Part shown: positions 1-64,000 of the stretch, in pieces
Numbering within the stretch: the stretch's first letter is position 1
Layout: every line of letters starts with the position of its first letter
Assembly: GCA_944384535.1 (NCBI GenBank)
Contig: CALWTS010000041.1
Location: 10,399 to 74,398 of the forward strand
Source: an uncultured Clostridia bacterium
Lineage (GTDB): Bacteria; Bacillota; Clostridia; Christensenellales; UBA1242
Direction of reading: 5' to 3'
DNA: 64,000 nucleotides
Notes under the pieces: model-generated
The model's database searches: none
What the model saw: only the letters and a program-made list of their open reading frames with translations
Told to the model about the DNA's origin: nothing
Translations under genes and position numbers: made by a program

Positions 1-3000
1 CACTAAAAGTAAATATTAAATTAGAAATAAAACTTCTATTTTCATAAGTAAATTTATTTTGATTTACAACAACTTCATCAATTTGAAGTTTTTCAATTTG
101 AATAGTGAATTCGAACGCTTTTGAAACAGATGTATAACCTGTTCTACTTACAGTAATTAAAAGTTTGTAATCATTACCATTAGAGTTTGTGTTTGCTGGA
201 ACAGTGAGTCCATTTTCTTTATCAAATAAAACACTATCCGCTTTCATCCATTGATATTTATATGAAAGTGCATCTTCATTTTTGTTTTCAATTCCTGTTG
301 TCAAAACATCTACAAGGTTAATATCATCGACCAAAGCACTATAATCTGCTTTTGCATTTCTTTTAACAATACTATTAAGAATTCCCGTTGGTTCAACAAT
401 AACCCAAATAGCAGTAATCTTTCCTGCCGTAATTTTTGCATCAGCTGAAACCTGAATTAAATTACCTTCAATAGATACTTTACTATCATAAGATTGCCAG
501 TGATCGAAAGCAAATCCAGTCCAACCTTCACCTAGAGATGCTTCTTTACTTTCACCTAATTTAATATAAAGATAGCCATTATTTCCACCTTTATCACCCC
601 AATCTAACAAGATAGCTTTATAGTCTGTGAAAATTGAATAAATATTTGAACCTTCACTAAATTCGTTAGTAAATTGTCTGCTTCCTTCATTGCTTAAAGT
701 ATTTAAAGTGTTTAACAAAGAATTTGTTTCAAAATTATTTGTCCAATCTAAAACAGCCATATTTCCATCAACTTCAAAAGTAAATGAAACAGTTTTTCCA
801 TTTGCAACTTGAACTAATGGATTATTTGTTACATTAGAAGAAATAGAGAATATTAATTCATCACCAACAATTAAATTGAAGAAATCCCTGTCCGAACTAA
901 TCATTGTAGTAGGACCATTGTTATAGATATAACTTACAATCTTGATGTTAACATCATCTTTATCTAAAACATTAACCGTGTCAAAATATTTTGTATCAAC
1001 AACAACTTTATAAGCATCATTTTGAGATATGATTTCATAAGCACCAGTAATAACCCAAACAAAATTATTTGTTTTTATTAGATCATCTTTATAAACAGTA
1101 CCTTGAATGTTAAATTGTTCAGTTTTATCATAAACGTTAGCAATTACTTCGTTAGTTTCAATTAATGAAATATTGACAATAAAGTCTTTAACATAATCCG
1201 GTTGAGAAATTGCATAATCAACAACTTGTTGTTTTTCATTATTTTCAAATGCCTTTCCACTCACCTGAATAGTAATAGGTGTTTGCTTAATAGAAGCTGT
1301 TACTTGAGAAGTTTCATAAGTATAGAAAGAACCTGCTTGAACAAGACCGCTATAATTATTAATATCAAATGCTCCAGTTGCAGTAAAATAATATTTTACA
1401 CTGTAATTGTTACCAACATCAAATTGGTTAGTTTCATCTAAAACAACAACCTTATAGAAAGTTAATTCATTAATAGCAGTCTTATCCAAATCACCATAAT
1501 GTGCTGTACCATAATTATTTAAATCAGTTGGATAGAAAACTCCAGTACCACTATAATAAGTTTCAAGATTTGTATCTGCAAAAATAATATTACTTGATTG
1601 AATATTAACTTTAATAGGTAAAGATTGAATCGTGTATGTAACAGAATTTGTGGAATCTAACAACGTATCATGAAGTTCAATTACAACATAAACTTCCCCA
1701 TCAGTTATTGCATTTCTATACATTAATGAATAATCTGATTGAATTTCATATCTAACATTATTGATTTTGTAGTAAATATCAATTACTTTATCTCCATTTG
1801 CAAAAATGGTTCCTTTAGTAACAGTTTCATTTTTTTCAGTCGTTATAATGCTGTTTGCAATAACTTGTTCATTACCATTAAAGATTAAATCATAAACAGG
1901 AGTAGTCTGTGCTTGAACATAATTTTCCTCAGATATCCAATAAGCTTTCAATACAAGGTTACCATCATATTTAAATATGTTATTTTGAACAAAAGGCTCA
2001 CTATAAGTCCAATTAACACCGCCGTTATTAGATGTAGCAAATACCTGATTTCCATATTTCAAAGTGTTAACCTTGTAACCTGAACGATCAAATGTAACAG
2101 AATCCAAGAAAGAAATCATTTCTTGATCAAATGAAACATCAAAAAGTGTTTGAGATATTGTTTCAGGTGATGATGTTTGTATTTCAATTGTATAGTCTTT
2201 AGCTTTAATAGCAACTTGAGAAGTTATATCTCCACAGATGTTTGAAATTGTAACAATATTTCCAGAAACAGCAATTTTTGCTTTTTCATTTTCTAAAGAA
2301 CTTGAATCTGTAAGAATTTTTGTATTATTTACATCAATTTCATAGCCTGTCTCTAAAGTAAATGTAAACGATTTACTTGTTCGGTATAATGTTTTGATAG
2401 CAGCATTTTCAATATATTCTGCACCATCTACTCTAACCTGAATAATTTTACTATTTTCATCAATATAGGAAACTTGAACATTATATCTGTTACTAGACCA
2501 ATCTGCAATTAAAGTCATAGTTAAGTCTATACTTGGATTTTCTGTAATGAAAGGACTTCCTAAAATATAAGTTTCTAACCCATTACTCCATGAATAACTT
2601 TGTCCTGCAGCATAAACTTCAGGAATATCATCGATAACAGAACCATAAACCCAATCTCTTGTAACAGTATCTTTTCCAGTATCATCACCTATAAATACCG
2701 CTTCAACATCATGACCTTCACTATCTTTATTAGGAGTACCTTTATCAAATGTTATTTTATAAATGAGTCCTTCAAAATGAGCTTTCAACTCGATAACTAT
2801 ATCCTCTTGAGGAATAGAACCATATAATAATATTATAATTTGTTCTATATTTTCTTCAGAAGTAACTTGTTTATCTGAATAAACCCAATAGTCTTGTTCG
2901 TAAGTTCCCTCTTGAGGTGTGTAGTAAGAGATTAAGTCACCTAATAAATCTTTCTCAAAATTTTTATTATAAACTCCAGAAATATCTCCACTCTTTTCAT

Positions 3001-6000
3001 TTATAGAAGCACCAATAGGTTGATCGTAAGAAGTTTCAAATGTAACATTAATTACTTCAGTAAGAATAGTAACTGTAAGAGAAGAATGAATAGTATTAAG
3101 AGTAAAGCTTCCGTTTGTAGTGTTTGTTGCTTGATTTGATGCGTTAATATCACCACTTATAGAAACAACACTACCATTAATGATTGTATTACTCCACTTG
3201 TACCAATCCTGACCATCTAATTTAACATAGATAGTATCATTATAATAAATATCATAAACATTATTTAAAGAAACAATCTTTTGTCCTAAAGCACTGTCTT
3301 TATAAAGAGAAACATTAATATTTGATGAAGAAATTAAGGTTAATGTTAATTTAGCAACTTTCCATTGTGCTACAAAAGTATATCCTTTCTCTTCATCATC
3401 ATCTATAAAATCAAATCCTTTCTCTTTAATTCTTTCCCAAATAGTAGTTGTTCCCTGTGCTCCAGTACTATTACCAAAACCTTCAACTTGCCATTTATCA
3501 AAATCGTAAGTATTAGGAGTTGTAACATATAGTTCAGGTAAATCGGTTGAAGAAAGTTCAGAGTATGAAACAATTCTCTCTTTAATACCCCCTGTCCAAC
3601 CTTTGCTATTTGTATCAACATTAAATTTTTCAGGTTCATTGTAAGAAATTATAATTTTAACAGTAATCTCTTCAGAAATAACAGTTGCTTTTATATTTCC
3701 TATTATATTTATTAAACTAAATGCTCCTGTATTTGTAGTATTTCCATTCACAATAAGTTGTTTTACATTATTTTCATTTTCTAAACCAATTTCTTCAAAG
3801 GTATATCCTTCTTTAGTTGTTACTGAAATATTTTCAATACTATCCCAATAATTTATTGTTATTTGTTTAGATAAATCCAAATCATTATGTGAAATTGAAA
3901 TTGTGTCATTATGAATAACATCAACAGTATATTTTTCAATATCCCATATTGCGTTGATTGTTATTGAACTATTTAAATGAGCTGCGTCAACAGCGTGTTG
4001 CAAGAAAGAATCTTTATCAAAACTAATATCACTAAGAGATATATTATCATAAGTCCATCCTGTTTGTTTATAACCAATTCTTGTTGCAAAACTTGATTCA
4101 GCTAAAAGATTATTTATCAATTTAACCAAATCACCATCATAAGTAAGAACTAAATCACCATCGTTACCAAAAGTATCAATTCCATCGTTAACCCAATTTT
4201 TAGTATCAAGTTCTTTATGGAATGTCAAATTAATAGATGTTATATTACCTTTGACAATTTGAGTAACGGTGTAGTTAATATTAGCACCACTTAAAGTTAA
4301 GGTAATTTCTTTATTATTACCTATGGTTTTGTCGTTATAAGTTCCACTTTCAACGTAAATAATATCTCTAGCTAAAATTCCATCTGAAGTGTAATAACCA
4401 TTATTTGCATTAATGTTTTGTTTTACAAAAGTTTCTAAAACATTATTATTACCGTCATATTCTTTTGTTATAACCTTTCCAGAAGCATTACTAATTGTTA
4501 TAGAAATTGGTGTAATTTCAACAATTATTGTTAACTGAGTGTTATAAACATGTCCTAAATCACTTTCAATAGTTTGACCGAAAGTATAATTTTTAGAACT
4601 TAAATTATAAACAAAGCTCCAGCTTTTATTTACGTTAAGATAATTTCCACCTAAAGAATAGAGTTTGTCTGTAATATCATAAGAAACAGCAGTAATGTAA
4701 GTATTATTAATTTGTCCTCCATTATAAAGAAGAGGAATTATAGTATTTAACTGAGTAATGTCTGTAGTGTTTGTTATAATACCATATTGAACAGCACTCA
4801 CAGAGGATGATAATGATATATCTTCTGTTGATGGTTTAACTAAAACCTTTAAGTTTTCTGCGAGTTGCAAAGTATAATTTGAGTAAGCTCCAACCTGATC
4901 AATCACAAAACTTGTAAATTCTTGCTCTCCTGCCAATGCTGAACCTATCTGCCCAGAAATTTGAATTTCATCAGGAGTATCTACTGTTATAATTCCCTCG
5001 ACAGTCAATTCGATTGTATTATTAAAATTATTAATATTGTTATATACGAAAGAATTTGTTTGATCAAAAACTTTAACAGCATTAGTAATAGTCAACATTT
5101 TTTGATTTACTATAATTTTAGCATTATCATGGTTAACGAACTCGACACCACTCCAACCACCTTGTGCAGATGTTGATAAAGCAACATTTAAATTATAAAT
5201 ACCTGCAAATTTATTTACATCTAAACTTGAGAATGTCAAATAAGTTGCATATAAATCTTTTTGATCTTGAGGAATTTGAATAGTGTTGTTTCCACTCATA
5301 TAATACAAATCAAAACCAACAGTTACTTCTTGGGTACCAGCAGTGCCTTTTAATGTGTAATTCAAACCATTATAAGAAACTGTTAAATTATTTAAAGAAT
5401 AACCATTATAGATATAAGATAATTTACCTTTTAAATCTACTTGAAGTTTACTCTCTGGAACTTTAATTTCAAAATAAGATTCAAAGCCATCAGTATTAAC
5501 AGTATAATTTTGTCTATCATCAACATAAGTTAATTGAGAGAATGTAAGGATATGAAGTCCAATAGATTGCCATCCTTGAGTAGTAGTATCTCTTGTAAAT
5601 TCTAGTTTAACCTCATCTTTCAAGTTTTCTTCAATAATTATAGTTGCGCTTATAGGATTTGGATCTTCTGTACCAAAAACTTTAGAAGGTGTAATTTTAT
5701 CATTGTAATCAGCTAAATTAATAATATATTGAGAAATTTGTACATTAAAGTTTTCTCTTCCACTTTCAAGCTCATATACTTTAGTAAGTAAACTGTCAAT
5801 AGTAGCAGAGATAATATAAGTATCAACTTTATTTAAAACGTTATAAGATTTTGTAGATGAAATTGTAATAAAGAATCCTTTGCCTGAGTTTGAATTATCT
5901 GTTGTAGGTAAAGTTGCTAATATAGCTGTTCCGTTTTCTTTACCATTTAACCAAAGTTGTACAATAACATTTCCATTTTGATTTGAATTATTAAATATTA

Positions 6001-9000
6001 AATTAGAGTTTTGAGTAGAAATACCAATCGTGTTAATTTGAATAGTTAAATTTAATGTACATTCGAATACTTGAGTTTGTGGACTATAAACTCCATCATT
6101 ATAAGTAACACTGACAACAAACTTATAATCTCCAGTCATATCAGTAGTAGCCATTCCACTTTCATTTTTAATGAAGAAAGAATTAGAACTAGAATTATAA
6201 GTAAAGTTTAAAGAATCATGATTTAATGTTAAAACTTTTGAAGTAGTTTTATCTGGATATAAAATATTTACAAATTCATCAACAGTTAAATCAAAACCAG
6301 TAGTACTAGCTTTCTTTGTTAATTTGTTTTTAATTTGTGTTGCATCAACTTGATTAAATAACCAAGCTGCTTTTAATGTTTCGGCTTGACCTCCTTTTTG
6401 TGTTGTGAAAGTGTTTTTTCCTTCACTTGATGAAACTACAATATTGCCAGTTTTAGGACTACTGTAATTATTAAATGAAAGACCTGAATATGAATGAGTT
6501 GGATTTGAAACATCATAAACTCCATTCATTACACCAAGATAAATAGTTTCAGCGCTTTTTCCATCTCGAGTTCCACCATTATAATCCAAATTAATCTTAA
6601 CAACATCAGTTAATACAGCATAAATATTTTGATCAGATGAGTTTGATTGAATTGTGCTTGTCAAAGGATTGGAAGCAGTAAACGCACTGTCAAGATATGA
6701 ATCATAATAAGAAGCATTTAAATTATCTCCCCAAGCTAAAAGAGAAAGTTTTTCACTTCTAGTCGTAGAAATATTAACCTTGATATCAAAATATAAATTA
6801 TTAATAGTTTTACGAACATCATTATTAATGTAAATAATCAAATGAGAAGAATTATTATTTACAAAACTAAATAAAACTTGTTCTTGATATTTATAGGTAA
6901 ATTGAGAATCATTTTCTATTAAAATTGAACTGTCATTTACAACCACATTTTCAACTGTCAAAGTTTCCATATAGCCTTCATAACTTTCAGCAAGTGTTTC
7001 AATAAGTTTACCCTCGCTAGCTAATAAATATTTTGAATAATAGTTATATTTTACAGCATTATTTGAATTTAACAATTCAAAAGTAGATGATTTACTAATA
7101 TTCCATTCAAAATTAGAATATAAATCTTGTTCATGTCCAACTATAGAAAGACCTTCAACAATAAAATTTTTACTATCCTCGATATTATTTTCTTTACCAG
7201 AATAGATACCTGGTTGAGCATTTGGATATAAAGTAATTTGATTGTAAGTATAAGTAAATGTCTGACTTCCTACTCCAAATTGAATATTAGATGAATTTTT
7301 ATAGACAATGGTTGTAACACCATCAAAATAATAAGCAGATCCTGGTTTAAACTTTATAGTAAATTTAGCTTTTTCAACACTAATAGAACTATCACTATCA
7401 TTATTGATAAAAGAATAGTAACCATTTTCATCTTTTTCAACATTACTGAAAAGATTTTTATAATTTTGACCATAACCAGACCAAACAATATTTGAATCAT
7501 TAATATAAACTTTTAATGACTTGTTCTGTCCTACATTATAATCATTGTCTACTTGATAGATTGAAAAATCTTTAAAAGCATTTTCAACTTTATCAATTTT
7601 GGTTATATTTCCTTCATATAAATTATCTCCATTCCAATCATATTTAAATAGGAAAGAACCAAAATTATTAGTTTCTTCAACTTTTACAAATTCTTGAGTA
7701 CCATTATAGTAAGAATGAATATCATTATCAAAATAAACAATTTCATTCTTAACCATTGTAAATTCAACAAAAGATGTGCTAATAGCTGTATATGTAGCAC
7801 TGCTTAAAGTGTCTTTTATATTTATAAAGAAAACAACTTTATATTGTCCTTCTTGAGAGAAGTTGGATATATTTAAAGTTAAACCATTATAATTTTTAGT
7901 CTCTGAATTAAATGTCACACTATACCCAAAACTTAAAATTTGCTCACCATTTGTTAAAATATCATCAGCAGAAGGTTGAGTTTTATCTCCAACATTAACT
8001 CCTGACATTAATCCATTTAAAATATCATGATTATTAAAAAGATAAAAACTTCTAACACTATTTACACCCTCTGTCCAACTTAAGTCAGCAGTTGTAGATT
8101 GTTTATTAAATACCCAAATAGGTGTAACATTAATATCAGCAGTCGAAGTAAATGGATTATTTACACTTAAAATAGAACTATCGGTTTTTTTCCACTGCGA
8201 GTAATCTGGATTATAGCCATCTCTTGTAATTATGAGATTTTTCCCATTTACTGCATTTTGAATGTTTATAGGTTTTGTATTATATGTAACATTAATATAA
8301 ACTTTTCCATTTTCTTCGCCACCGTATGCATTATTTTCTCCATTCCAAATTACGCTATAATACTTATTAGTTGAAGAATTTATATAAATTCTATAACTTG
8401 CAGCTTCTCTGTAAGTTTTTAATATGATAGGATCATTATTGTTTGCCGTAAAGTAATATCCACTTGTTAAAATTTGTTTAACAATATCTAAATTTTCAAC
8501 TGAAAATTTAAATATATTAGTGTTTCCTGTTGTAAATGAGGTAATAGGATTGTTATCATCTGAACCATCATATCCTATAGAATAAATATTTGCTTTCTTT
8601 GCAACATAACCTAGAACACTTTTTCCATTTTTTGTAATTTTATTGATTGTATAAGATGCTTTACCATCTTTATCACTTTCAGTAACATTCATTAAGATAG
8701 TTTGACCAATTTCAATATTCATTGAAACATAATCATCTATTCGAATAGTATAAGTAATAATTTCCCATGTAGCAGTAAGAGTAATTGATGCTTTTTTACT
8801 TTTTTCATCTCCTGCAAAACTATTCCAACTTTCAGTTGGACTACCTCTAAATAATGAATACCAGTTTTCTCCTTGTATAGTAAAATTACTATCTGCACTA
8901 TAACCATTACCCTCTGTTGTCCAAGAAGTCAACCATTCAGCGAATGTATAACCTAAATTTGAATAAATTGGAGAAAGTTTAATCGTTTGAGCATAAGTTA

Positions 9001-12000
9001 CAGTTGCAAAAACTTTGTCTTGTGTGTTGTCAACAAAATTTCCATTGTAATAAATTTTTCCGTTTTCTTTATCGCCAGAGTTGAGATGAACATCTACAGT
9101 TCTTTTAACAACATACGCTGCTACATTAGAATAAATTATTTCTTTACTGTTAACATCTCTTGTTCCAACTTGTATAATGTCGTTTATAATAGATGAATCT
9201 GTTAAATAATTTCCATAATTTCCAGTAGTAACAGTTGTGCCACCTTTAAGATACCATCCCAAAAGATAATATTGTGAATCTATATTAATACTACCTAAAT
9301 TTCCTGAAATTTTAACTGCTTTATTGGTTGTATCATAACTAAATGTTGCACTGCCAGTTATGTTTTGAAGTGCACTTAAATCGATTAATCTACCATTTAC
9401 CTCTCCATTAGAGTTCCCTAAATATAATTGATTTACATTGATAGTTAATTTTTTAAAGTTAAAATGAAAGGTTGCAGTTGAATTAAATGTACCCATCTTT
9501 ACTTCAAAAACCCACTTACCTTCTGAAACCTTGCTTTCTTCAGTGATGATTTTCATGCTGCTCTTTTGGTAACCAGCAGAAGCATTAGAATCTTCATCAA
9601 CTATAGTACTAGATAAGGCATTTACTCCGTATAATATACCCTTACCTGCTTGTGTTAAATTAATTTCTATCTTATAAGTATAACCTGATTCAATACTAAT
9701 TATTGAATTATTTTTTTCTCCATTAACTATAAAATCATATAGGACACTATGCGCATCTACAATATTATCAGAGATTTCAAAACTGATATTCAAATTATAA
9801 CTTCTTCGTTGAAATTTTACAATTATATTAATAACACTATTATCAGTACCATCATATATTTTATTTACAAAAATTGAAGAGGCAGTAAAAATATCATTTT
9901 CCCAAGAACCATCTATCGTTACAGAACCTATCATTACTGCAACTGCTTGGTAGTAACCATTATTTTTTGCATAAACTTGATCTGCTGTTGTAGATGAAAT
10001 TGTTGTCTTATATGGAAAAAGAGCAGATGTATTTGCTATATAATTTTTCTTTTCACTATCATCATTTATAGCAATACCTAAATTAGCATATTGAGGATTA
10101 CCTCCATTTATATTGATAGTTTCACCATTCTCATTAATAAGTTTTACATAAACTTTACTTTTTAATGCTCCTATTAAAGGTTTTAAACGAATGCCATTAG
10201 TAGAAAAAGTTTCATTGGAAGTCGTGAGATTATAAAAATAACCAGTATAATATGGATTATTCTTATCTAAAGTAGGAATTAGTAAGTTTGTATCTGGACT
10301 AGCTGTTATATTTACTCCACCACTAGTAGTAAAATTAGTATCCTTGAGTGGATTTAGTACAGCACCATCTCCTGTAACTACCAATTTAAGATTATAAGTT
10401 TCATATAATTTGAATTTTGTTTCACTACCTAATAATGTGTAACTTCCATTTTTTTTAACGTACCACTCATATTTTATTTCATTATCAACAAATATTGGTT
10501 TTAAATCATTTGTAAGTTCAGTTCTTTTAATTACAATATAAACTTCACCTGCTTTACCAACAATATCTTTTACTGTTATCGTATATGTATTACCATTTTT
10601 TTTCCCAGAAATAGAGACTGGTAAATATGAGTCATTGTTTCTATCATTATTGTAATTATAATTAGGATCTATTCCTGTAGAATTTGTAAATTTTACATAT
10701 AATCCACTTGCTTTGTTTGCACAAAACAAATTATACTCATCACCTGCTGAGTTTTCTTTATTTCTTATAATGTCATTAGAACTCTCGCTTGTCGCTAAAT
10801 CTATTCCAAATCCATTTTTTAAAGTAATTGTAAAAGTTGACGTGTTTTGTTTAGCAGGAGTTTTAATACCATACCTTTGCTCAGTTGCATTGACAGTTAG
10901 TCCATTTGGATAGGTTGAAACTGCAGATGAAAGCATATCTTGACTTGTCTTATAATTTGATTTTTCATCTTCTGCCATTGCTAAATAAACATTGTAAGAA
11001 AAATTGCCCTGTGCTATAAATTTAGGATAAACAGTACACCCGTCGGTAGGATATGCCTTGTTATATGTGTTGCCATTAACATCATATTTTTCTCCTGAAA
11101 ACTTAGCATCTGAATACAAACCTTCAAAATCATATCCTACTCTTTTTATTAAATATTGATTGTTATCTAAAAAATTTTTAAATGTTTGATCATATTGCAT
11201 GCTTACTTCAGTTACTCTTCCTCCATATTGAAAATCAAACGTAACTTCAATTTTTGTTAATTCCGCTCCCAATATGTAACATTTATCTTCTGCCCCAACA
11301 ACCTTTTCTGCTGAAGGAATAGAATATTTTATTCCTTGAAGAAGAGGATATACATCATCATTTCCTGCATTTTCCCTCAAAGTTATCATTTTATTATGAT
11401 ATAAATAAGCATTGGCATTATTTATATCTGCTACATTTTTGCCGTTAAAACAGAATCTAACAAATTTTTCTTCATACCATTTTTCTCCTTCCTTATAAAA
11501 AACACCATTGTTACTAATATGTACATATCCTACTGTTAAACTACTATCTTTTCCTTTTATTTTTGTACTATCAGTAACTTTTTCTGTAGTAAAAGTATTA
11601 TTTTTTATATAACCATCTCCTGTATAAACTTGACCTTTTATATTACCAATTGATTTTACACTACTTGTACTTGTTCCATCATATTTTGATTTTGAAGTCG
11701 TGAAATCATAGCAATTAATAACAATTCCACCTTTAGCGAGTGTCCCCATCAAACTTCCAACATTATTTTTGTTTGTACTAGCATAAAAAGTTCCATCAAG
11801 AATTACATCTGTTATTGTTCCAGAGACGTAACCAAATAAACCAACAGAATTACTGCTACTATCTATAACAATATCTGCAGTGTTGACATTCTTTATAGTA
11901 TATCCATTACCAATAAATGTTCCATTAAATGGATTAGAAGATGTATTAGAAGATGTATTAGAAGATGTACCTATTGGTGTCCAAAGAGCTCCAGATAAAT

Positions 12001-12370
12001 CAATGTCAGCTTTTAGAGAAAAAATATAATCAGGTGAAGTCTTTCCATTATTAACTAAATATGCCACATAAGCAAGATCTACTTCATTATTAACTTGATA
12101 AACAGTTTTATTTCCCCCATTTATTTTAATACTTTCTGTTTTAAGACTCATAGAAGAAACATTAACCAAAGCATCACTCCACATTTTTTCAGATAAAGTA
12201 TCAGCAGAAACAATTTCTGAATCACTTAACTGAGAAACAGTTAACAATTTTTGATTACTTTGCGCCTCGCTTGTCTTTTTAAAATTTAGACTAGAAACTA
12301 AACAAAAAACTCCTATAGTCATAATCATAAGAGCAAATATGTATAATCCATTTACCAATCTTCTAAACAT
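1..12370 (-). CDS. giant secreted/cell-surface adhesin-like protein; start inside the window, 3' end lies beyond position 1 (4123 codons visible)
   Basis: Absent from the supplied track. ATG is the complement of 12368-12370. AAGGAG (complement of 12378-12383) lies 7 nt upstream, and an in-frame TAA (12383-12385) fixes the start. I split every 60-nt line into this frame (plus-strand codons at 2-4, 5-7, ...) and found no tta/cta/tca triplet down to position 2. N-terminus MFRRLVNGLYIFALMIMTIGVFCLVSSLNFKKTSEAQS has a basic n-region plus hydrophobic core. The other five frames are closed (longest listed ORF 79 aa). Confidence 0.9.
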   Translation of the reverse strand, partial: MFRRLVNGLYIFALMIMTIGVFCLVSSLNFKKTSEAQSNQKLLTVSQLSDSEIVSADTLSEKMWSDALVNVSSMSLKTESIKINGGNKTVYQVNNEVDLAYVAYLVNNGKTSPDYIFSLKADIDLSGALWTPIGTSSNTSSNTSSNPFNGTFIGNGYTIKNVNTADIVIDSSSNSVGLFGYVSGTITDVILDGTFYASTNKNNVGSLMGTLAKGGIVINCYDFTTSKSKYDGTSTSSVKSIGNIKGQVYTGDGYIKNNTFTTEKVTDSTKIKGKDSSLTVGYVHISNNGVFYKEGEKWYEEKFVRFCFNGKNVADINNANAYLYHNKMITLRENAGNDDVYPLLQGIKYSIPSAEKVVGAEDKCYILGAELTKIEVTFDFQYGGRVTEVSMQYDQTFKNFLDNNQYLIKRVGYDFEGLYSDAKFSGEKYDVNGNTYNKAYPTDGCTVYPKFIAQGNFSYNVYLAMAEDEKSNYKTSQDMLSSAVSTYPNGLTVNATEQRYGIKTPAKQNTSTFTITLKNGFGIDLATSESSNDIIRNKENSAGDEYNLFCANKASGLYVKFTNSTGIDPNYNYNNDRNNDSYLPVSISGKKNGNTYTITVKDIVGKAGEVYIVIKRTELTNDLKPIFVDNEIKYEWYVKKNGSYTLLGSETKFKLYETYNLKLVVTGDGAVLNPLKDTNFTTSGGVNITASPDTNLLIPTLDKNNPYYTGYFYNLTTSNETFSTNGIRLKPLIGALKSKVYVKLINENGETININGGNPQYANLGIAINDDSEKKNYIANTSALFPYKTTISSTTADQVYAKNNGYYQAVAVMIGSVTIDGSWENDIFTASSIFVNKIYDGTDNSVINIIVKFQRRSYNLNISFEISDNIVDAHSVLYDFIVNGEKNNSIISIESGYTYKIEINLTQAGKGILYGVNALSSTIVDEDSNASAGYQKSSMKIITEESKVSEGKWVFEVKMGTFNSTATFHFNFKKLTINVNQLYLGNSNGEVNGRLIDLSALQNITGSATFSYDTTNKAVKISGNLGSINIDSQYYLLGWYLKGGTTVTTGNYGNYLTDSSIINDIIQVGTRDVNSKEIIYSNVAAYVVKRTVDVHLNSGDKENGKIYYNGNFVDNTQDKVFATVTYAQTIKLSPIYSNLGYTFAEWLTSWTTEGNGYSADSNFTIQGENWYSLFRGSPTESWNSFAGDEKSKKASITLTATWEIITYTIRIDDYVSMNIEIGQTILMNVTESDKDGKASYTINKITKNGKSVLGYVAKKANIYSIGYDGSDDNNPITSFTTGNTNIFKFSVENLDIVKQILTSGYYFTANNNDPIILKTYREAASYRIYINSSTNKYYSVIWNGENNAYGGEENGKVYINVTYNTKPINIQNAVNGKNLIITRDGYNPDYSQWKKTDSSILSVNNPFTSTADINVTPIWVFNKQSTTADLSWTEGVNSVRSFYLFNNHDILNGLMSGVNVGDKTQPSADDILTNGEQILSFGYSVTFNSETKNYNGLTLNISNFSQEGQYKVVFFINIKDTLSSATYTAISTSFVEFTMVKNEIVYFDNDIHSYYNGTQEFVKVEETNNFGSFLFKYDWNGDNLYEGNITKIDKVENAFKDFSIYQVDNDYNVGQNKSLKVYINDSNIVWSGYGQNYKNLFSNVEKDENGYYSFINNDSDSSISVEKAKFTIKFKPGSAYYFDGVTTIVYKNSSNIQFGVGSQTFTYTYNQITLYPNAQPGIYSGKENNIEDSKNFIVEGLSIVGHEQDLYSNFEWNISKSSTFELLNSNNAVKYNYYSKYLLASEGKLIETLAESYEGYMETLTVENVVVNDSSILIENDSQFTYKYQEQVLFSFVNNNSSHLIIYINNDVRKTINNLYFDIKVNISTTRSEKLSLLAWGDNLNASYYDSYLDSAFTASNPLTSTIQSNSSDQNIYAVLTDVVKINLDYNGGTRDGKSAETIYLGVMNGVYDVSNPTHSYSGLSFNNYSSPKTGNIVVSSSEGKNTFTTQKGGQAETLKAAWLFNQVDATQIKNKLTKKASTTGFDLTVDEFVNILYPDKTTSKVLTLNHDSLNFTYNSSSNSFFIKNESGMATTDMTGDYKFVVSVTYNDGVYSPQTQVFECTLNLTIQINTIGISTQNSNLIFNNSNQNGNVIVQLWLNGKENGTAILATLPTTDNSNSGKGFFITISSTKSYNVLNKVDTYIISATIDSLLTKVYELESGRENFNVQISQYIINLADYNDKITPSKVFGTEDPNPISATIIIEENLKDEVKLEFTRDTTTQGWQSIGLHILTFSQLTYVDDRQNYTVNTDGFESYFEIKVPESKLQVDLKGKLSYIYNGYSLNNLTVSYNGLNYTLKGTAGTQEVTVGFDLYYMSGNNTIQIPQDQKDLYATYLTFSSLDVNKFAGIYNLNVALSTSAQGGWSGVEFVNHDNAKIIVNQKMLTITNAVKVFDQTNSFVYNNINNFNNTIELTVEGIITVDTPDEIQISGQIGSALAGEQEFTSFVIDQVGAYSNYTLQLAENLKVLVKPSTEDISLSSSVSAVQYGIITNTTDITQLNTIIPLLYNGGQINNTYITAVSYDITDKLYSLGGNYLNVNKSWSFVYNLSSKNYTFGQTIESDLGHVYNTQLTIIVEITPISITISNASGKVITKEYDGNNNVLETFVKQNINANNGYYTSDGILARDIIYVESGTYNDKTIGNNKEITLTLSGANINYTVTQIVKGNITSINLTFHKELDTKNWVNDGIDTFGNDGDLVLTYDGDLVKLINNLLAESSFATRIGYKQTGWTYDNISLSDISFDKDSFLQHAVDAAHLNSSITINAIWDIEKYTVDVIHNDTISISHNDLDLSKQITINYWDSIENISVTTKEGYTFEEIGLENENNVKQLIVNGNTTNTGAFSLINIIGNIKATVISEEITVKIIISYNEPEKFNVDTNSKGWTGGIKERIVSYSELSSTDLPELYVTTPNTYDFDKWQVEGFGNSTGAQGTTTIWERIKEKGFDFIDDDEEKGYTFVAQWKVAKLTLTLISSSNINVSLYKDSALGQKIVSLNNVYDIYYNDTIYVKLDGQDWYKWSNTIINGSVVSISGDINASNQATNTTNGSFTLNTIHSSLTVTILTEVINVTFETSYDQPIGASINEKSGDISGVYNKNFEKDLLGDLISYYTPQEGTYEQDYWVYSDKQVTSEENIEQIIILLYGSIPQEDIVIELKAHFEGLIYKITFDKGTPNKDSEGHDVEAVFIGDDTGKDTVTRDWVYGSVIDDIPEVYAAGQSYSWSNGLETYILGSPFITENPSIDLTMTLIADWSSNRYNVQVSYIDENSKIIQVRVDGAEYIENAAIKTLYRTSKSFTFTLETGYEIDVNNTKILTDSSSLENEKAKIAVSGNIVTISNICGDITSQVAIKAKDYTIEIQTSSPETISQTLFDVSFDQEMISFLDSVTFDRSGYKVNTLKYGNQVFATSNNGGVNWTYSEPFVQNNIFKYDGNLVLKAYWISEENYVQAQTTPVYDLIFNGNEQVIANSIITTEKNETVTKGTIFANGDKVIDIYYKINNVRYEIQSDYSLMYRNAITDGEVYVVIELHDTLLDSTNSVTYTIQSLPIKVNIQSSNIIFADTNLETYYSGTGVFYPTDLNNYGTAHYGDLDKTAINELTFYKVVVLDETNQFDVGNNYSVKYYFTATGAFDINNYSGLVQAGSFYTYETSQVTASIKQTPITIQVSGKAFENNEKQQVVDYAISQPDYVKDFIVNISLIETNEVIANVYDKTEQFNIQGTVYKDDLIKTNNFVWVITGAYEIISQNDAYKVVVDTKYFDTVNVLDKDDVNIKIVSYIYNNGPTTMISSDRDFFNLIVGDELIFSISSNVTNNPLVQVANGKTVSFTFEVDGNMAVLDWTNNFETNSLLNTLNTLSNEGSRQFTNEFSEGSNIYSIFTDYKAILLDWGDKGGNNGYLYIKLGESKEASLGEGWTGFAFDHWQSYDSKVSIEGNLIQVSADAKITAGKITAIWVIVEPTGILNSIVKRNAKADYSALVDDINLVDVLTTGIENKNEDALSYKYQWMKADSVLFDKENGLTVPANTNSNGNDYKLLITVSRTGYTSVSKAFEFTIQIEKLQIDEVVVNQNKFTYENRSFISNLIFTFS
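11933..11980 (-). repeat. perfect 12-nt x4 in-frame tandem repeat inside the giant ORF (coding strand ACATCTTCTAAT = Thr-Ser-Ser-Asn x4)
   Basis: Read directly on the plus strand: gg[attagaagatgt]x4 acct. Confidence 0.95.
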
Positions 12371-12585
12371 AACACAACTCCTTTACATTCAAAAATAATG
12401 GTATAGCTATCGAAAGTACTTTTTCTAATTTATTATATAATATTTATGATATTAAAATCAAACAAAATTATCCATTTTTAATATTAAGAAGTTAACAAGA
12501 GTTAATATATTAAAGTTAGACAATATGGAATTAATAAGGCAATCATAACAAAAAGTAATCATAACTAAATAAAAAATATATTTCA

Positions 12586-12615
12586 TTGACATTTAGTTTT
12601 TTTTAATGCTATAAT
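12586..12615 (+). promoter_or_regulatory. sigma-A-type promoter of trpS
   Basis: TTGACA (12586-12591), 18-nt spacer, TATAAT (12610-12615), 16 nt before the ATG. Confidence 0.6.
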
Positions 12616-14707: not shown

Positions 14708-15343
14708 ATGACGAATCCAATAATAGAGTCTATTTTATTTTCTTTAGCTTTATCACTAGACTCTTTTATAACATTTTTTGGTTATGGTGCATCAAAAATT
14801 AATGTAAGAATAAAACCACTTTTACTTACAATATTAATAAATATTTTAATGTTATTATCCGGAATAATTTTAGGAAAATCATTATCTTATTTTTTAAGTG
14901 ATAATTTTTCTAAATATTTTTCCTTTTCTTTACTATTAATTGTTGGAATTATTAAATTTTTTAGTGAAATAATAAAAATGTGGCTCTCTAAAGTAGCTAA
15001 AAAAAATAATAAAATAAAAATTTCTATATTTAATTTTAATTTGTTTTTAGATGTAGTAGTAGATCCCTTAAAAGCAGATGTAGATAAAGATAAAAATTTA
15101 TCTATAAAAGAAGCTATCATAATTGGAATTATACTTTCTTTTGATAGTTTGTGTGTAGGTTTTGGAATAGGTATAGAAAATAATTTTTCTTATTTAATAA
15201 TTTTATTTTCTTTTATAACTAATTTTTCTTTTTCTGTTTTTGGAAATTATTTGGGTAAAAAAATAACAAAAAAAACAAATATAAATATTTCTTGGATAAG
15301 TGGGCTTACTTTAATTTTGTTGGCATTTTTGAAAATTATTTAA
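14708..15343 (+). CDS. MntP/YtaF-family (DUF204-like) membrane protein
   Basis: 211 aa. N-terminal FSLALSLDSF motif and a second half-repeat (ILSFDSLCVGFGIG) are typical of the MntP/YtaF two-repeat fold. Confidence 0.7.
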   Translation: MTNPIIESILFSLALSLDSFITFFGYGASKINVRIKPLLLTILINILMLLSGIILGKSLSYFLSDNFSKYFSFSLLLIVGIIKFFSEIIKMWLSKVAKKNNKIKISIFNFNLFLDVVVDPLKADVDKDKNLSIKEAIIIGIILSFDSLCVGFGIGIENNFSYLIILFSFITNFSFSVFGNYLGKKITKKTNINISWISGLTLILLAFLKII

Positions 15344-15434: not shown

Positions 15435-17279
15435 ATGAAAAAAATATTTATAATATTTGGATTATGTTTTTGCTTATTATCAACTCTTTTTATGTTAAGT
15501 GCGTGCGGAAGTAATAGGATTACTGTGGAAAGTATAACATTTTCACAAGATGTTTATGAAATTTTTAAAGGTGGTTCAAAAAAATTAGAAATTAATCTTT
15601 TACCAGAAGATGCGAGGGGATTTTCTTTACAATGGAAAACTTCAAATCCAAAACTACTGTCAGTAGATTTAGGAGGTTATGCTCAAACTTACGACTTATA
15701 TGGTGAAGCAACTGTAACTGTTACTGAAAAATATTCTGGTGTTTCTGCATCTTGTAAAGTTATCGTTAATGATGGTTATGCTTTTAAAATTTATGCTGAT
15801 TATAGTAATATAAAAACTACATATTACGAAGGAGAAAGTTTTGATTCACAAGGACTTACTGTTTATGCTAGTTATCAAAGTGGAGTAGATAAAGTAATAC
15901 CCGCTTCTCAATACGAAATAGATGTTCCAGATGTTTTAACAAATGATACAAAAGTTAAAATTAATTACAATGATTTATCAACTGAATTTGATATTTATGT
16001 AGTTAAAGATCACATTCTTGGTTTAACAGTCTTATCACAACCTATAAAAACAACCTATTTACTAGGAGAATCTTTTGATCCTACAGGATTAGAAATAGGA
16101 TTATTATACGCAAGCGGTAAGATTGAAAATATATATGATTATGAGTATGATAACTCACCTTTAGAATATGGTACTGAAAGTATAGTTATTAAATATTTAG
16201 ATTATGAAATTGAAATTCCTATAAAGTTAAAAACTAATTACGTAATAAATAATATTTCAAACATTCAATCTGTAATTGATAATGCTGAAAATGGAACTAG
16301 TATAATGATATCAAAAGGAGAATTTAACGTTTTTGAACCAATTAGAATTCCAAAATCAAAAAATTTAACAATATTAGGTGAAAATAGTGATGTAATAATA
16401 AATAGTATTGATTCATCAATATTTGAAATAGTTAATGATACTGAAGAAAGTTGTTATTTAAAAATATTTAATATCACATTAAATTCAACTAATACAGAAA
16501 AAGCAATATTTTCACTTAATAATATAGATTCAATAAACAACCTTAATAATATAGAAATATCATTATCTCAAATTACATTTGAAATAAATACTAATGGTAA
16601 AATAATAGAATTTATTTCTAATAAAGAATTTACTACACAATATATTGAAAACATTGATTTATCACTAAATAATTGTATATTATTAAGTTCTACAACATCT
16701 GAAAGTGAAAATAATAACATTATCCATATAAGTGGTATAAATAATGGTATATTAAATATAACTGAATGTGATTTTAATAATTCAAATAACATTATATTTA
16801 TAGAAGACTCTTATAATTTTGATATAAATATTTCAAATACTATATTAAATACAATTTCTAAAGTTGTTGTATTAAATGAAATTAAAGATTGTAACATAAA
16901 TATTTTTAATAATTCATATTTAAAAGGTTTGTCATGTATAGATGTATCAAACAGCGAAAATATTGAATTAAAAATAGATAATTCATATTTAACTTCAAAT
17001 CAAAATCAAGAAGATATTTTAGAAAATATAACGGCAATTTTATTTTTAAAAGGTTGTAAAAATTTAAATATAACTATTAATAATTCAAACTTAACAACAA
17101 TGTATAAAGATGAACAAATTTATGAAAACGCTTTAAACTATATAAGTATAATAAAAGATAATGATATTAATTCAAAAAATAATGAAATCATATTAAAAAA
17201 TTGTGATATAGTATGTAATTTAAGTGAAATATATTTGATTATAGAAAATAATATTACTAGCTTTGTAACTATATGTTAA
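15435..17279 (+). CDS. surface lipoprotein: Big_2-like Ig domain, two Big_3-like Ig domains, Asn/Ile-rich beta-helix-like C-terminal half
   Basis: Lipobox LSAC at residues 21-24. ITVESITFSQ...VTVTEKYSGVSASCKVIVN resembles Big_2. Two Y.GESFD..GL.V...Y modules follow. The C-terminal half is N-rich with a periodic NI..I.N pattern. Confidence 0.75.
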   Translation: MKKIFIIFGLCFCLLSTLFMLSACGSNRITVESITFSQDVYEIFKGGSKKLEINLLPEDARGFSLQWKTSNPKLLSVDLGGYAQTYDLYGEATVTVTEKYSGVSASCKVIVNDGYAFKIYADYSNIKTTYYEGESFDSQGLTVYASYQSGVDKVIPASQYEIDVPDVLTNDTKVKINYNDLSTEFDIYVVKDHILGLTVLSQPIKTTYLLGESFDPTGLEIGLLYASGKIENIYDYEYDNSPLEYGTESIVIKYLDYEIEIPIKLKTNYVINNISNIQSVIDNAENGTSIMISKGEFNVFEPIRIPKSKNLTILGENSDVIINSIDSSIFEIVNDTEESCYLKIFNITLNSTNTEKAIFSLNNIDSINNLNNIEISLSQITFEINTNGKIIEFISNKEFTTQYIENIDLSLNNCILLSSTTSESENNNIIHISGINNGILNITECDFNNSNNIIFIEDSYNFDINISNTILNTISKVVVLNEIKDCNINIFNNSYLKGLSCIDVSNSENIELKIDNSYLTSNQNQEDILENITAILFLKGCKNLNITINNSNLTTMYKDEQIYENALNYISIIKDNDINSKNNEIILKNCDIVCNLSEIYLIIENNITSFVTIC

Positions 17280-18545: not shown

Positions 18546-18627
18546 ATTAATATATTAACACAAAAAAGATAAATTTAAAATAAATAATTTATCATTTACA
18601 AAAAATAATCTTTAAAGTCACTCATGG

Positions 18628-18656
18628 TTGACTTTTTTTTATTAGCAAGTTATAAT
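18628..18656 (+). promoter_or_regulatory. sigma-A-type promoter of dnaA
   Basis: TTGACT (18628-18633), 17-nt spacer, TATAAT (18651-18656). It lies inside the N-terminal extension proposed by the track. Confidence 0.6.
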
Positions 18657-18686
18657 TGTTGTCGTATTATATTAAGAGGTGGAAAA

Positions 18687-20039: not shown

Positions 20040-20183
20040 ATAATATAAAAAATCCACAACTTATCCACAATTTTATACAACAATATAAAGTATTTATTTT
20101 ACTAATAAAATTAAAATTATACAATATATAGACTAAATTATAATTTATCCACAAATTTACATTGATTATTATTAATATTATTA
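20031..20183. other. oriC core: DnaA-box cluster plus AT-rich trinucleotide-repeat unwinding region in the dnaA-dnaN spacer
   Basis: TTATCCACA perfect at 20061-20069 and 20145-20153. TTATCCACC on the complement of 20031-20039. AAATCCACA at 20050-20058. TTA TTA TTA ATA TTA TTA at 20166-20183. Confidence 0.75.
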
Positions 20184-63657: not shown

Positions 63658-64000
63658 ATGAAAGTGATGAATAAGTTAGTTAGAGATAAAATACCAGAAA
63701 TATGTTTGTCAAATAATCAAAAACCTAAAATAAAAATACTTAATAAAAGCGAGTATTATGAAAAACTGAAAGAAAAATTATTGGAAGAAACTAAAGAATT
63801 TTTAGAAAGTGAAGATATAGAAGAGTTGGCAGATTTAGAAGAGGTTTTAAGGGCTCTATTGGATTTAAAAGATACAAGTTATGATAAACTTGAAGAAATT
63901 AGATTGGAAAAATTAAAAAAAAGAGGAGGTTTTAAAAATAGAATATTTTTACTTAGTGTTGAGGATATCGTAAAACAATTGGGAGGAAAAAATAATGACA
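63658..64000 (+). CDS. MazG-like nucleoside-triphosphate pyrophosphohydrolase family protein, apparently truncated by the window edge
   Basis: Absent from the track because no stop occurs inside the window. MKVMNKLVRDKIPEI...LLEETKEFLES...ELADLEEVLRAL...KKRGGF is the pattern of small all-alpha NTP-PPase proteins. Confidence 0.7.
   Translation, partial: MKVMNKLVRDKIPEICLSNNQKPKIKILNKSEYYEKLKEKLLEETKEFLESEDIEELADLEEVLRALLDLKDTSYDKLEEIRLEKLKKRGGFKNRIFLLSVEDIVKQLGGKNND

Follow-up and report, generated by a model that had tools for sequence, protein, structure and literature searches.

A 19.2-kb gene beside trpS in an uncultured gut Clostridia bacterium encodes a member of a narrow family of giant, predicted surface proteins

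What does the first 12.4 kb of this DNA encode? The window, meaning the whole stretch of 64,000 nucleotides that was analyzed, opens with a region (1-12370) that looked empty because the ORF listing excludes ORFs running off an end. The preliminary description had recognized this omission and had named a second case, the ORF at 63658-64000; the latter is indeed open over 114 codons and missing from the listing. When we translated the reverse complement of 2-12370, the minus-strand frame set by the ATG at 12368-12370 continued for 4,123 codons down to position 2 with 0 stops, as had been claimed. Across the same span, each of the other five frames contained between 255 and 658 stops, and their longest open runs reached 37 to 90 codons. 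If stops were only as dense as in the frame with the fewest of them (~6%), a run of 4,123 codons free of stops would still have a probability of <1e-100. An alternative genetic code was considered and is irrelevant, since the frame is already stop-free under table 11. The ORF has a GC content of 28.1% (window, 25.3%), and its composition (N 10.5%, T 9.4%, S 9.4%, I 8.9%, and Y 6.4%) agrees with the richness in Asn, Thr, Ser, Ile, and Tyr noted earlier.

2..12370, minus strand: giant gene, codons 1 to 4123 of 6,398 (stop-free frame; same-strain contigs; ortholog P0053)

To the left of the window, the gene continues for ~6.8 kb, through another 2,275 codons to its stop. Same-strain contigs in public assemblies are 100% identical over 3,246 aa, and the product called on them has 6,398 aa, so that the previous figure of more than 4,100 aa stands as a minimum and falls short of the actual length. 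The ortholog of a second strain (P0053) is complete at 6,396 codons, ends in TAA, and is 95.5% identical over the 4,123 aa of the window; a strong terminator with a 12-bp stem lies 5 nt past that TAA. We conclude that the window at 2-12370 (minus strand) holds the 5′ two-thirds of one monocistronic gene with a product of 6,398 aa (~715 kDa), which bears out the proposal of one continuous giant coding gene. An apparently empty 12.4 kb is thus the largest gene of the window and, at 19.2 kb, must represent a substantial commitment of the organism's resources. ORF tracks that are blind to partial genes can hide giant genes like this one.

Trivially, such a frame could reflect an assembly that is chimeric or collapsed, or else a pseudogene in the course of decay. 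Metagenome assemblies can in principle collapse repeats, although nothing was found in favor of an artifact here. Repeat collapse was rejected, the sole DNA repeat found being a 41-bp microsatellite (Tandem Repeats Finder). An identical 9.7-kb stretch is present in a Logan contig of run ERR4096495, and gene calls on that contig and on an ENA scaffold both give the 6,398-aa product. The whole frame is kept in the second strain: strain-to-strain indels amount to 20 residue positions altogether, every one in frame, and dN/dS is 0.33 (3,237 codons). Length and domain order are, in addition, common to 16 distant orthologs. The giant gene is intact and under purifying selection, and an artifact, to which we give a negligible probability, is effectively refuted.

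The start of the gene and its surroundings were read next to these comparisons. The upstream sequence, 5′-...TGTAAAGGAGTTGTGTT-ATG, is identical in strain L023 and contains the following elements:

12378..12383, minus strand: Shine-Dalgarno sequence AAGGAG, 7 nt before the ATG at 12368-12370, overlapping an in-frame TAA at 12383-12385 (read directly)
12432..12461, minus strand: putative promoter-like site TTGATT-18-TATAAT, 10/12 matches (consensus scan only)

The ribosome binding site and in-frame stop match the start context reported previously. The promoter-like site is ~60 nt before the start, inside a 261-bp divergent spacer common to the giant gene and trpS; neither there nor elsewhere was a T-box or other leader detected, Rfam returning two tRNAs only. 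Wherever local context is readable, the giant gene is beside trpS (observed in L001, L002, L004, L005, L010, L013, and L022), and in the window it is ~7.7 kb from DnaA boxes, near oriC and co-oriented with replication. A Flg_new membrane protein of 337 aa is encoded in the adjacent position, and rpsF is found downstream of the giant gene. Orthologs adjacent to trpS in related metagenome-assembled genomes are 47%, 33%, and ~25% identical, and the syntenic relatives in L006 and L009 have only 1,380 aa. GC3 of the gene is 0.135, compared to 0.132 for neighboring housekeeping genes; horizontal acquisition was rejected on this value together with cross-species synteny. The label "accessory" given to the gene in the preliminary description is unsupported: synteny is kept throughout the clade, with collinear orthologs beside trpS in several related species. 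From these comparisons, it behaves as a conserved gene of its clade.

To which proteins is the product related? An exhaustive search of 1.84 billion representatives yielded 21 matches, and the family was retrieved only in this way: when the N-terminal 600 aa served as query in a word-indexed homology search, all matches were distant GLUG-module proteins from outside the family. A scan of GTDB genomes with the last 500 aa of the fragment found no relative, which means that the species is absent from those representative genomes. About 16 members are full length (6,079 to 6,706 aa, with 14 of the 16 within 6,183 to 6,467 aa) and are collinear end to end at 26 to 41% identity; all members come from related uncultured gut Clostridia. 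The window protein is collinear with all 16 (family P0053-P0071) and has the family's N-terminal signal and head as well as the trpS locus. The C-terminal traits (head-like module, transmembrane [TM] segment, and basic tail) are taken from P0053 and other members, the window strain's own C terminus being known by its length (6,398 aa) only. The intact 4,123-aa fragment gave 0 Pfam matches at an E value of 0.01; a rerun on 550-aa pieces was needed for a YDG domain to appear, and no segment had an informative match in NCBIfam. Pfam and NCBIfam together leave >90% of the sequence uncovered. By sequence, these proteins form a narrow, undescribed family built like known giant Gram-positive adhesins. 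The family is now defined, whereas current annotation libraries leave such proteins "hypothetical."

The termini suggest how the protein may be placed in the envelope. P0053 (6,396 aa) has exactly two hydrophobic segments, one at each end, and the signal-like N terminus described earlier is one of them.

12290..12370, minus strand: residues 1 to 27, predicted signal peptide or signal anchor (MFRR, then a hydrophobic stretch of ~21 residues)

This N-terminal segment (Kyte-Doolittle mean, 2.3), whose pattern recurs in 12 other family members, is predicted to be a Sec signal peptide or signal anchor; if it is an uncleaved anchor, both ends of the protein would be membrane bound. The C-terminal 2,275 residues are described from the 95.5%-identical strain (P0053). 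They include a TM helix (Kyte-Doolittle mean, 3.0 to 3.9) followed by [RK]5-8 and, in most members, (L/M)(D/E)E(I/L)A(N/S). The earlier suggestion of an LPXTG, cell-wall-binding, or S-layer anchor at the C terminus found no counterpart in this ortholog, which instead ends in the one TM helix and the Arg/Lys-rich tail; the motif LP.T[GASN] is absent throughout its 6,396 aa. The protein is acidic (pI 4.5).

Beyond the signal, the N-terminal part divides into a conserved module, which we call the head, and a variable region:

11591..12193, minus strand: head module, residues 60 to 260 (AlphaFold2 model; homology to a module of GLUG proteins)
11929..11969, minus strand: 12-nt tandem repeat, 3.4 copies, encoding (SSNT)n within the head (Tandem Repeats Finder)
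11012..11293, minus strand: first beta-grasp (Flg_new-like) domain after the head, residues ~359 to 453, containing GYDFEGLY (secondary structure of the model)
7961..11590, minus strand: distal region, residues 261 to 1470 (family conservation and strain comparison)

The head comprises a helix (DLAYVAYLVNNG), the conserved motifs DIDL..WTPIG..F.G.F.GNG..I and GLFG, and short-strand, beta-solenoid-like repeats; its AlphaFold2 model has a pLDDT of 83.7 and a pTM of 0.79. Residues 91 to 257 are 36% identical (E value, 1e-16) to a module of P0003 located just ahead of its GLUG repeats; P0003 scores 77 bits for PF07581, which also occurs on many other homology-search matches to the N-terminal 600 aa. 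In the N-terminal segment itself, PF07581 has no match even at an E value of 10. The GLUG domain type proposed before thus holds as homology to the cap module of GLUG-motif proteins and fails for the Pfam GLUG motif. A head profile had 0 matches among PDB sequences. Foldseek matched the C-terminal domain of the head model (residues ~359 to 453) to ubiquitin-like/beta-grasp folds (probability of 1.0 over ~87 residues) and to the InlB internalin plus B-repeat structure (InlB residues 36 to 392; E value, 5e-4).

The head, residues 5801 to 5900, and the last ~200 residues are among the most conserved blocks of the family, and the residues invariant in the head are the structural motifs WTPIG, F.G.F.G, and GLFG. 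Residues ~200 to 1000 are the most variable part, with a conservation minimum at 601 to 900. Between strains, the first 870 residues hold all of the indels and the highest pN (0.047 to 0.056), and the (SSNT)n copy number varies, the window having 8 residues more than strain L001. The giant gene has a dS of 0.079, compared to 0.003 to 0.04 in its neighbors, in a mosaic pattern. That family conservation is at its lowest, pN at its highest, and every indel located within the first ~1,000 residues is what an adhesive tip would lead one to expect. A fast-evolving mosaic tip would be a natural strain-tracking marker and a target for binding studies. A second head-like module sits beside the membrane on the C-terminal side, which is unexpected for a pure tip adhesin.

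The rest of the window protein corresponds to a predicted long stalk:

2270..7960, minus strand: supermodule A of the stalk, residues 1471 to 3367 (internal duplication)
2..1807, minus strand: start of supermodule A′, residues 3522 to 4123, cut by the window edge (internal duplication mapping)
4259..4498, minus strand: YDG domain (PF18657), residues 2625 to 2704 (29.5 bits versus a cutoff of 25; E value, 9e-7; 550-aa segment)
2111..4693, minus strand: modeled stalk segment, residues 2560 to 3420 (AlphaFold2 pLDDT, 85.4; pTM, 0.41)

Collinear matches between residues 1469 to 3365 and 3520 to 5086 (21 to 30% identity; E values down to 8e-9) indicate that A is an ancient duplicate of A′. The modeled segment is predicted to form ~9 to 10 successive small domains of ~90 aa each, in which Ig-like beta-sandwiches alternate with helix-containing beta-grasp domains; its pTM of 0.41 is as expected for beads on a string. 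The repeated strand-helix-strand units with G[YF]xFxxW motifs correspond to the beta-grasp fold of the InlB B-repeat. Foldseek ranked the Bacillus anthracis TIE protein (E value, 8e-7), YwfG, pilins, pilus adhesins, and SdrD highest, with TM-scores that are low (0.1 to 0.2) because individual domains alone match. YDG/MBG membership (PF18657 and PF18676), here by Pfam gathering score, extends to the C-terminal part of the ortholog, where YDG scores 52.5 and 26.8 bits and MBG_2 reaches 20.5 bits, under its cutoff. Among the domain types anticipated earlier, MBG-related YDG was recovered, and Flg_new_2 (PF18998) was found in that C-terminal part (36.1 bits versus 23.6), whereas the Flg_new model (PF09479) stayed below threshold in the window (15.7 and 11.1 bits versus 27). 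As models, both AlphaFold2 stretches show beta-rich structure, the stalk stretch being a string of small beta domains, in line with the beta-type sequence proposed before such segment predictions were made. For the remainder of the protein, which may likewise consist of small beta domains, the Pfam matches and internal repeats agree with this picture.

We infer from these features, with moderate confidence, that the giant protein is a Sec-exported, membrane-tethered surface fiber with a variable tip acting in adhesion. The N-terminal signal would direct Sec-dependent export, and the C-terminal helix would serve as a stop-transfer anchor with a positive-inside tail, so that the protein would adopt a type I topology independent of sortase. 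Its ectodomain (~6,300 residues) would fold into ~70 beads on a string (Ig-like sandwiches, YDG, and Flg_new-like beta-grasp domains), which, if extended, would span an estimated 0.2 to 0.3 μm. The tip would present a GLUG-type beta-solenoid head and the fast-evolving distal region, and it may bind host, dietary, or neighboring-cell ligands. The placement of an adhesive domain at the N terminus of a long stalk is an established general design of Gram-positive adhesins (PMC10619420). Profile searches of PDB sequences and NCBIfam returned no ligand-binding or catalytic domain of known specificity. An uncultured, ~25%-GC, widespread gut lineage, whose DnaA variants (83 to 91% identity) are found on numerous public contigs, including 80 for a single variant, thereby gains a concrete candidate for contact with its surroundings.

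The main rival to adhesion is a steric shield or spacer, a membrane-tethered "bumper" or coat of defined length that would distance cells, phages, antibodies, or surfaces, or set envelope spacing, with no specific ligand. The tight length range of the family, its collinear, nonrepeated domains despite 26 to 41% identity, the acidic pI, and the retention of a single oriC-proximal locus throughout the clade, with transcription in the direction of replication, all suit such a role. The distal end, however, evolves fastest and carries a distinct head domain, as is typical of ligand-facing tips, and the 1,380-aa syntenic relatives imply that full length is not always required; we consider this reading unlikely. 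Length and domain order are unusually conserved, and the protein is nonrepetitive, features that fit a length-dependent structural role at least equally well. Taken further, the family might not be an ordinary adhesin but a lineage-defining, length-calibrated, membrane-tethered fiber encoded next to oriC in a clade of low-GC uncultured gut Clostridia, a view that we hold to be quite doubtful. The conserved length of ~6,400 residues, a succession of domains that is position specific and nonrepeated, and the presence of matching head-like modules at the two ends along with a conserved cytoplasmic tail point in this direction. If true, it would mean a structural or spacing function, for instance by keeping a partner cell or the host surface at a set distance or by forming an S-layer-like coat, and a new type of envelope organizer in Firmicutes.

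An envelope structural or morphogenetic role, in which a membrane-anchored scaffold serves wall or envelope integrity or division while its cytoplasmic tail contacts an intracellular partner, is very unlikely in our judgment. The tail motif conserved after the TM segment in most members, the core-like conservation, and the origin-proximal position speak for it, and Ebh has been associated with envelope integrity. Against it are extracellular domain types typical of adhesins (YDG, Flg_new, and Ig-like stalks) and a strain-level diversification, visible in the elevated, mosaic dS, that would be unusual for a housekeeping scaffold. We regard it as highly improbable that the long array of beta domains is a carrier for a secreted enzyme or toxin. 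Proteins with Peptidase_M26_N domains also have the head's cap module at their N terminus, but Pfam and NCBIfam searches of all segments and the PDB profile search with the head alignment revealed no catalytic or toxin domain; the invariant head residues are structural, and the C-terminal TM anchor speaks against release.

Among stalk-type Gram-positive adhesins and TIE proteins, we compared B. anthracis TIE (PDB 6fwv), Clostridium perfringens Cpe0147, and the adhesin of Mobiluncus mulieris, which has 7,651 aa (PMC10619420). Like these, the giant protein is one very large polypeptide in which a signal and a head at the N terminus are followed by a long string of small Ig-like beta domains. The TIE Ig-like fold is recovered, 6fwv being the top Foldseek match of the stalk model (E value, 8e-7; probability, 1.0; TM-score, 0.13 to 0.19). 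In contrast, the known proteins are sortase anchored via LPxTG and have recently repeated domains with intramolecular cross-links, whereas the giant protein is nonrepetitive, interleaves beta-grasp domains, and lacks LPXTG. The hydrophobic segment and basic tail of the sortase-anchored class are present in P0053 without the motif, and a C-terminal TM anchor takes its place.

Ebh and Embp of staphylococci (~1 MDa) have an N-terminal signal, a huge ectodomain, a C-terminal membrane-spanning segment, and a basic tail but no LPXTG. The giant protein shares the N-terminal signal, C-terminal TM segment, and basic tail (ortholog P0053). Size-dependent surface effects have been reported for the Ebh/Embp type (PMC6548404), and these proteins, as far as described in PMC7587433, are alpha-helical bundles with many near-identical FIVAR/GA-type repeats. 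The giant protein is, in contrast, beta-rich in both modeled stretches, predicted to be almost entirely beta, and nonrepetitive; no FIVAR, GA, or DUF1542 match was found by Pfam in the window fragment, its 550-aa segments, or the C-terminal part of the ortholog.

Type I-secreted giant adhesins of Gram-negative bacteria offer a further parallel. SiiE and LapA/RTX adhesins, in the accounts of PMC6272769 and PMC7493085, are long rods of beta-sandwich domains in tandem, with a binding region extending away from the cell, and the giant protein would likewise present a distant binding region on a rod of beta domains. SiiE and LapA, however, have a C-terminal type I secretion signal, Ca2+-rigidified BIg repeats, and outer-membrane retention, whereas the giant protein, encoded on a Firmicutes-type chromosome, combines a Sec-type signal at the N terminus with a TM helix at the C terminus. 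Omnitrophota-type giants, with numerous transmembrane regions and SecA DEAD-like domains (bioRxiv 10.1101/2023.11.21.568195), differ in that the giant protein has two hydrophobic segments only and no Pfam match to SecA in the window fragment, its 550-aa segments, or the ortholog's C-terminal part.

Giant genes of 10,000 to 30,000 aa with Listeria-Bacteroides repeats, Dockerin, LRR, and YG repeats have been described from gut Clostridia, with a proposed role in binding surface glycoproteins (West-Roberts et al. 2023, bioRxiv 10.1101/2023.11.21.568195). They share with the present family their source, mammalian-gut Clostridia, and Listeria-Bacteroides repeat domains (here by fold and by Flg_new_2 in the C-terminal part of the ortholog); by description they are larger, whereas the present family has 6.1 to 6.7 kaa, defined modules at both termini, and a locus that stays the same. 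Surface proteins of Firmicutes with Flg_new/InlB B-repeat, YDG/MBG, and GLUG domains use a domain vocabulary in common with the giant protein, most of whose domains are too diverged for Pfam models. Taken together, these comparisons indicate that the general principle of a giant Gram-positive surface fiber is already known, and that the combination, order, and size of the domains set this protein apart as a separate family with 21 representatives only.

The minus-strand frame read from the ATG at 12368-12370 through the reverse complement of window 2-12370 contains no stop in 4,123 codons. Each of the remaining five frames over the same span contains 255 to 658 stops, with longest open stretches of 37 to 90 codons; taking the stop density of the least stop-rich of these, the probability of such a run is <1e-100. 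Translation of the window bore out every detail of the open frame, start, AAGGAG, and upstream TAA reported in the preliminary description. Region 2-12370 had seemed empty because the ORF lister leaves out ORFs running off an end, as that description had supposed and as the lister itself states. A second edge-cut ORF that it had named (63658-64000, plus strand) is likewise present, 114 codons long and with no stop before the window edge. The following signals precede the giant gene:

12378-12383, minus strand: Shine-Dalgarno-type AAGGAG, 7 nt 5′ of the ATG
12383-12385, minus strand: in-frame TAA upstream of the ATG
~60 nt 5′ of the start, minus strand: promoter-like TTGATT-18-TATAAT (consensus scan)

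To establish the full length of the gene, we drew on public assemblies. The window's exact TrpS and DnaA proteins each occur on seven public contigs. On Logan contig ERR4096495_1612, the frame adjoining trpS matches the window at 100% identity across 3,246 amino acids (aa) and is called as a 6,398-aa product; a call of equal length is found on ENA scaffold ERZ28614154. A second strain (ENA ERZ16268138 scaffold_1081 and Logan ERR10610526, 0 nucleotide differences) encodes a 6,396-aa product, P0053, with 95.5% identity to the window protein across all 4,123 residues. In L023, the second-strain DNA carrying this gene, the reading is complete: 6,396 codons end in TAA, a terminator with a 12-bp stem and T run lies 5 nt 3′ of it, and the sequence upstream of the gene matches the window's. 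The difference between 6,398 and 6,396 aa reflects net indels inside residues 1-4123; therefore, the remaining 2,275 residues are equal in length in both strains. The C-terminal third of the giant protein was read from this 95.5%-identical second strain, not from the window's own.

These data, together with substitution, composition, and repeat analyses, led us to reject three explanations. Assembly artefact was rejected given the same-strain 6,398-aa calls, the intact second-strain gene, and the absence of DNA repeats in the giant gene besides one 12-nt × 3.4 (SSNT) microsatellite (11929-11969), whose copy number varies between strains. A pseudogene was rejected because the indels between strains, which sum to 20 residue positions, are all in frame, the second-strain frame is complete, and dN/dS is 0.33 over 3,237 aligned codons (dN 0.026, dS 0.079). 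The adjacent trpS, recF, and dnaN gave dN 0 and dS 0.003 to 0.04. Recent transfer was rejected on GC3 (0.135 versus 0.132 in ten other genes). Measured against L001, divergence of the giant gene between strains is mosaic (synonymous 0.012 to 0.22 per 250 codons), a pattern suggestive of recombination patches; the housekeeping genes on its flanks are near-identical.

The window covers a chromosomal origin region of Firmicutes type (25% GC), with trpS (12632), an MntP/YtaF-like gene, recF, dnaA, dnaN, dut, rpmH-rnpA-yidD-yidC-jag, mnmE, rsmG, and mnmG, in addition to parA/parB-like genes and addBA. The dnaA-dnaN spacer holds the only two perfect DnaA boxes in the window:

20031: DnaA box with one mismatch
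20061-20069: perfect DnaA box (TTATCCACA)
20145-20153: perfect DnaA box

Judged from these boxes, the spacer (20031-20153) is probably oriC, which would place the giant-gene start ~7.7 kb from it, directed away and co-oriented with replication. Gene order here is unusual: upstream of dnaA, recF occupies the minus strand, and rpmH-rnpA-yidD-yidC-jag follows dnaN-dut in the same orientation. For dnaA (18624-20039, plus strand), the mechanical ORF has 471 aa versus 450 aa in public calls for the identical protein, implying a start 21 codons further downstream, at ~18687. Just 5′ of trpS, TTGACA-18-TATAAT (12586-12615, plus strand) matches the sigma-70 consensus perfectly and has an extended TG; neither a T-box leader nor another Rfam family was detected in the trpS-giant-gene spacer. 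The MntP/YtaF-like membrane protein (14708-15343, plus strand) has 211 aa here versus 155 aa called in strain ERZ16268138, which may represent a truncation or a different start. A 614-aa ORF (15435-17279, plus strand), with a weak Big_3 match only and no NCBIfam match, is 100% identical in both strains, unlike the giant gene. Outside the window, the giant gene's terminator is followed by a 337-aa protein with an N-terminal transmembrane helix and Flg_new repeats (L023:25277-26290; TIGR02543, 45.8 bits), possibly a partner for the giant protein, and then by rpsF-ssb-rpsR-rpmE.

To determine how broadly the protein is distributed, we searched 1.84 billion representative proteins exhaustively with HMMER, using residues 2924-4123 as the query. 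Seventeen of 21 matches were 5,133- to 6,706-aa proteins matched at the corresponding position; the other four were short fragments or weak unrelated matches. Sixteen full-length members align collinearly end to end (26 to 41% identity to P0053), and 14 of them span 6,183 to 6,467 aa. A word-indexed database did not return the family: the N-terminal query yielded only distant GLUG-module proteins, and the C-terminal module only five short fragments. By TrpS (53 to 83% identity), most of the closest genomes are MAGs of uncultured Clostridia, Clostridiales, Eubacteriales, or Lachnospiraceae, labelled as gut samples from humans (UMGS, Hadza, Nepal), rumen (RUG), rabbits (Lapin), and mice (MGBC); the most distant matches were MAGs of Saccharibacteria (53%) and Anaerolineales (43%). 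The neighbor of trpS is a collinear ortholog in L004 and L022 (47% identity; TrpS 82 to 83%), L005 (33%), and L010 and L013 (~25%). Other fetched genomes carry different forms:

L006:5548-9690 and L009:5549-9685, minus strand: "mini" syntenic form of ~1,380 aa beside trpS
L012:11283-21035, L014:11452-21045, L015:11253-21050, and L016:11264-21037, plus strand: different open frames of >3,200 aa immediately 3′ of trpS

The mini form consists of a signal peptide and a region matching the giant's last ~1,220 residues (31% identity). The >3,200-aa frames, from more distant genomes, lie on the opposite side of trpS, extend past the end of the retrieved DNA, and have only the GLUG-type head module in common with the window protein. 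Because trpS-adjacent collinear orthologs recur in related species, the giant gene reads as a clade-specific, conserved, fast-evolving gene; "accessory feature," as it was initially termed, does not fit, since this is not an accessory island.

The giant protein has a calculated mass of 715 kDa and a pI of 4.5, and begins with two elements:

Residues 1-27: MFRR plus a hydrophobic stretch, a type of segment kept across the family
Residues ~60-260: head (AlphaFold2 model)

Membrane-spanning hydrophobicity is confined to the N-terminal segment and one C-terminal segment. The head, modelled on the 16-sequence family alignment (pLDDT 83.7, pTM 0.79), comprises a helix, short-strand solenoid-like beta structure, and a beta-grasp domain. 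Residues 91-257 share 36% identity (E 1e-16) with a module that lies ahead of the GLUG repeats of a PF07581 protein; Pfam's own GLUG model did not match the head. Foldseek against solved structures returned weak matches only: InlB internalin plus B-repeat (E 5e-4), the Lactobacillus reuteri SRRP solenoid (E 0.04), and ubiquitin-like beta-grasp domains (probability 1.0 over ~87 residues). Residues ~200-1000 are the least conserved in the family; every indel between strains falls there, and pN peaks there. Residues ~1470-3370 and ~3520-5090 are mutual ancient duplicates (21 to 30% identity). The stalk model (residues 2560-3420; pLDDT 85.4, pTM 0.41) shows 9 to 10 consecutive domains of ~90 residues, Ig-like sandwiches alternating with helix-containing beta-grasp units, with top Foldseek matches to Bacillus anthracis TIE protein (E 8e-7), YwfG, pilus adhesins and pilins, and SdrD. 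By Pfam, the window portion has a single YDG domain (29.5 bits), and the C-terminal portion of the ortholog adds YDG (52.5 and 26.8 bits) and Flg_new_2 (36.1 bits), leaving >90% of the protein uncovered; NCBIfam gave no match. Homology to the N-terminal head recurs in P0053 at residues 6212-6313 (28% identity, E 6e-11). The protein ends in a strongly hydrophobic helix (VIGSLIFLILLILLIILLI) followed by RKKKKKELQEIASA; an Arg/Lys run and then an acidic-Ala motif form the tail in 14 of 16 members. No LPXTG motif was found.

Giant stalk adhesins are already well known as a class, and giant surface proteins with Listeria-Bacteroides repeats were noted previously in gut Clostridia (bioRxiv 10.1101/2023.11.21.568195). 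What is new here is (i) a family of ~20 representative clusters without Pfam or NCBIfam coverage; (ii) its nonrepetitive, collinear architecture; (iii) its paired head modules, as recognized by homology; (iv) its predicted transmembrane-tail anchor; and (v) the fixed origin-proximal locus.

We propose that the N-terminal signal would direct Sec export and that the C-terminal helix with its positive-inside tail would act as a stop-transfer sequence, tethering the protein in the cytoplasmic membrane. Extrapolating from ~90 residues per domain in the stalk model, the ~6,300-residue ectodomain would comprise roughly 70 domains and, assuming 3 to 4 nm per domain, reach 0.2 to 0.3 micrometres, with the head and variable distal region at the far end. 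Chief among the alternatives is a shield or spacer whose action depends on length, instead of an adhesin, an effect described for staphylococcal giant surface proteins (PMC6548404); the strikingly conserved length and domain order of the family and the head-like module beside the membrane both speak for it. We consider it improbable that the family is a length-calibrated envelope organiser and not an adhesin. A surface fibre mediating attachment is the reading we favour, with moderate confidence, because Gram-positive stalk adhesins are established to have this design, an N-terminal head on a long stalk (PMC10619420). The giant protein would share that design but differ in its membrane anchor, which is of a non-sortase type.
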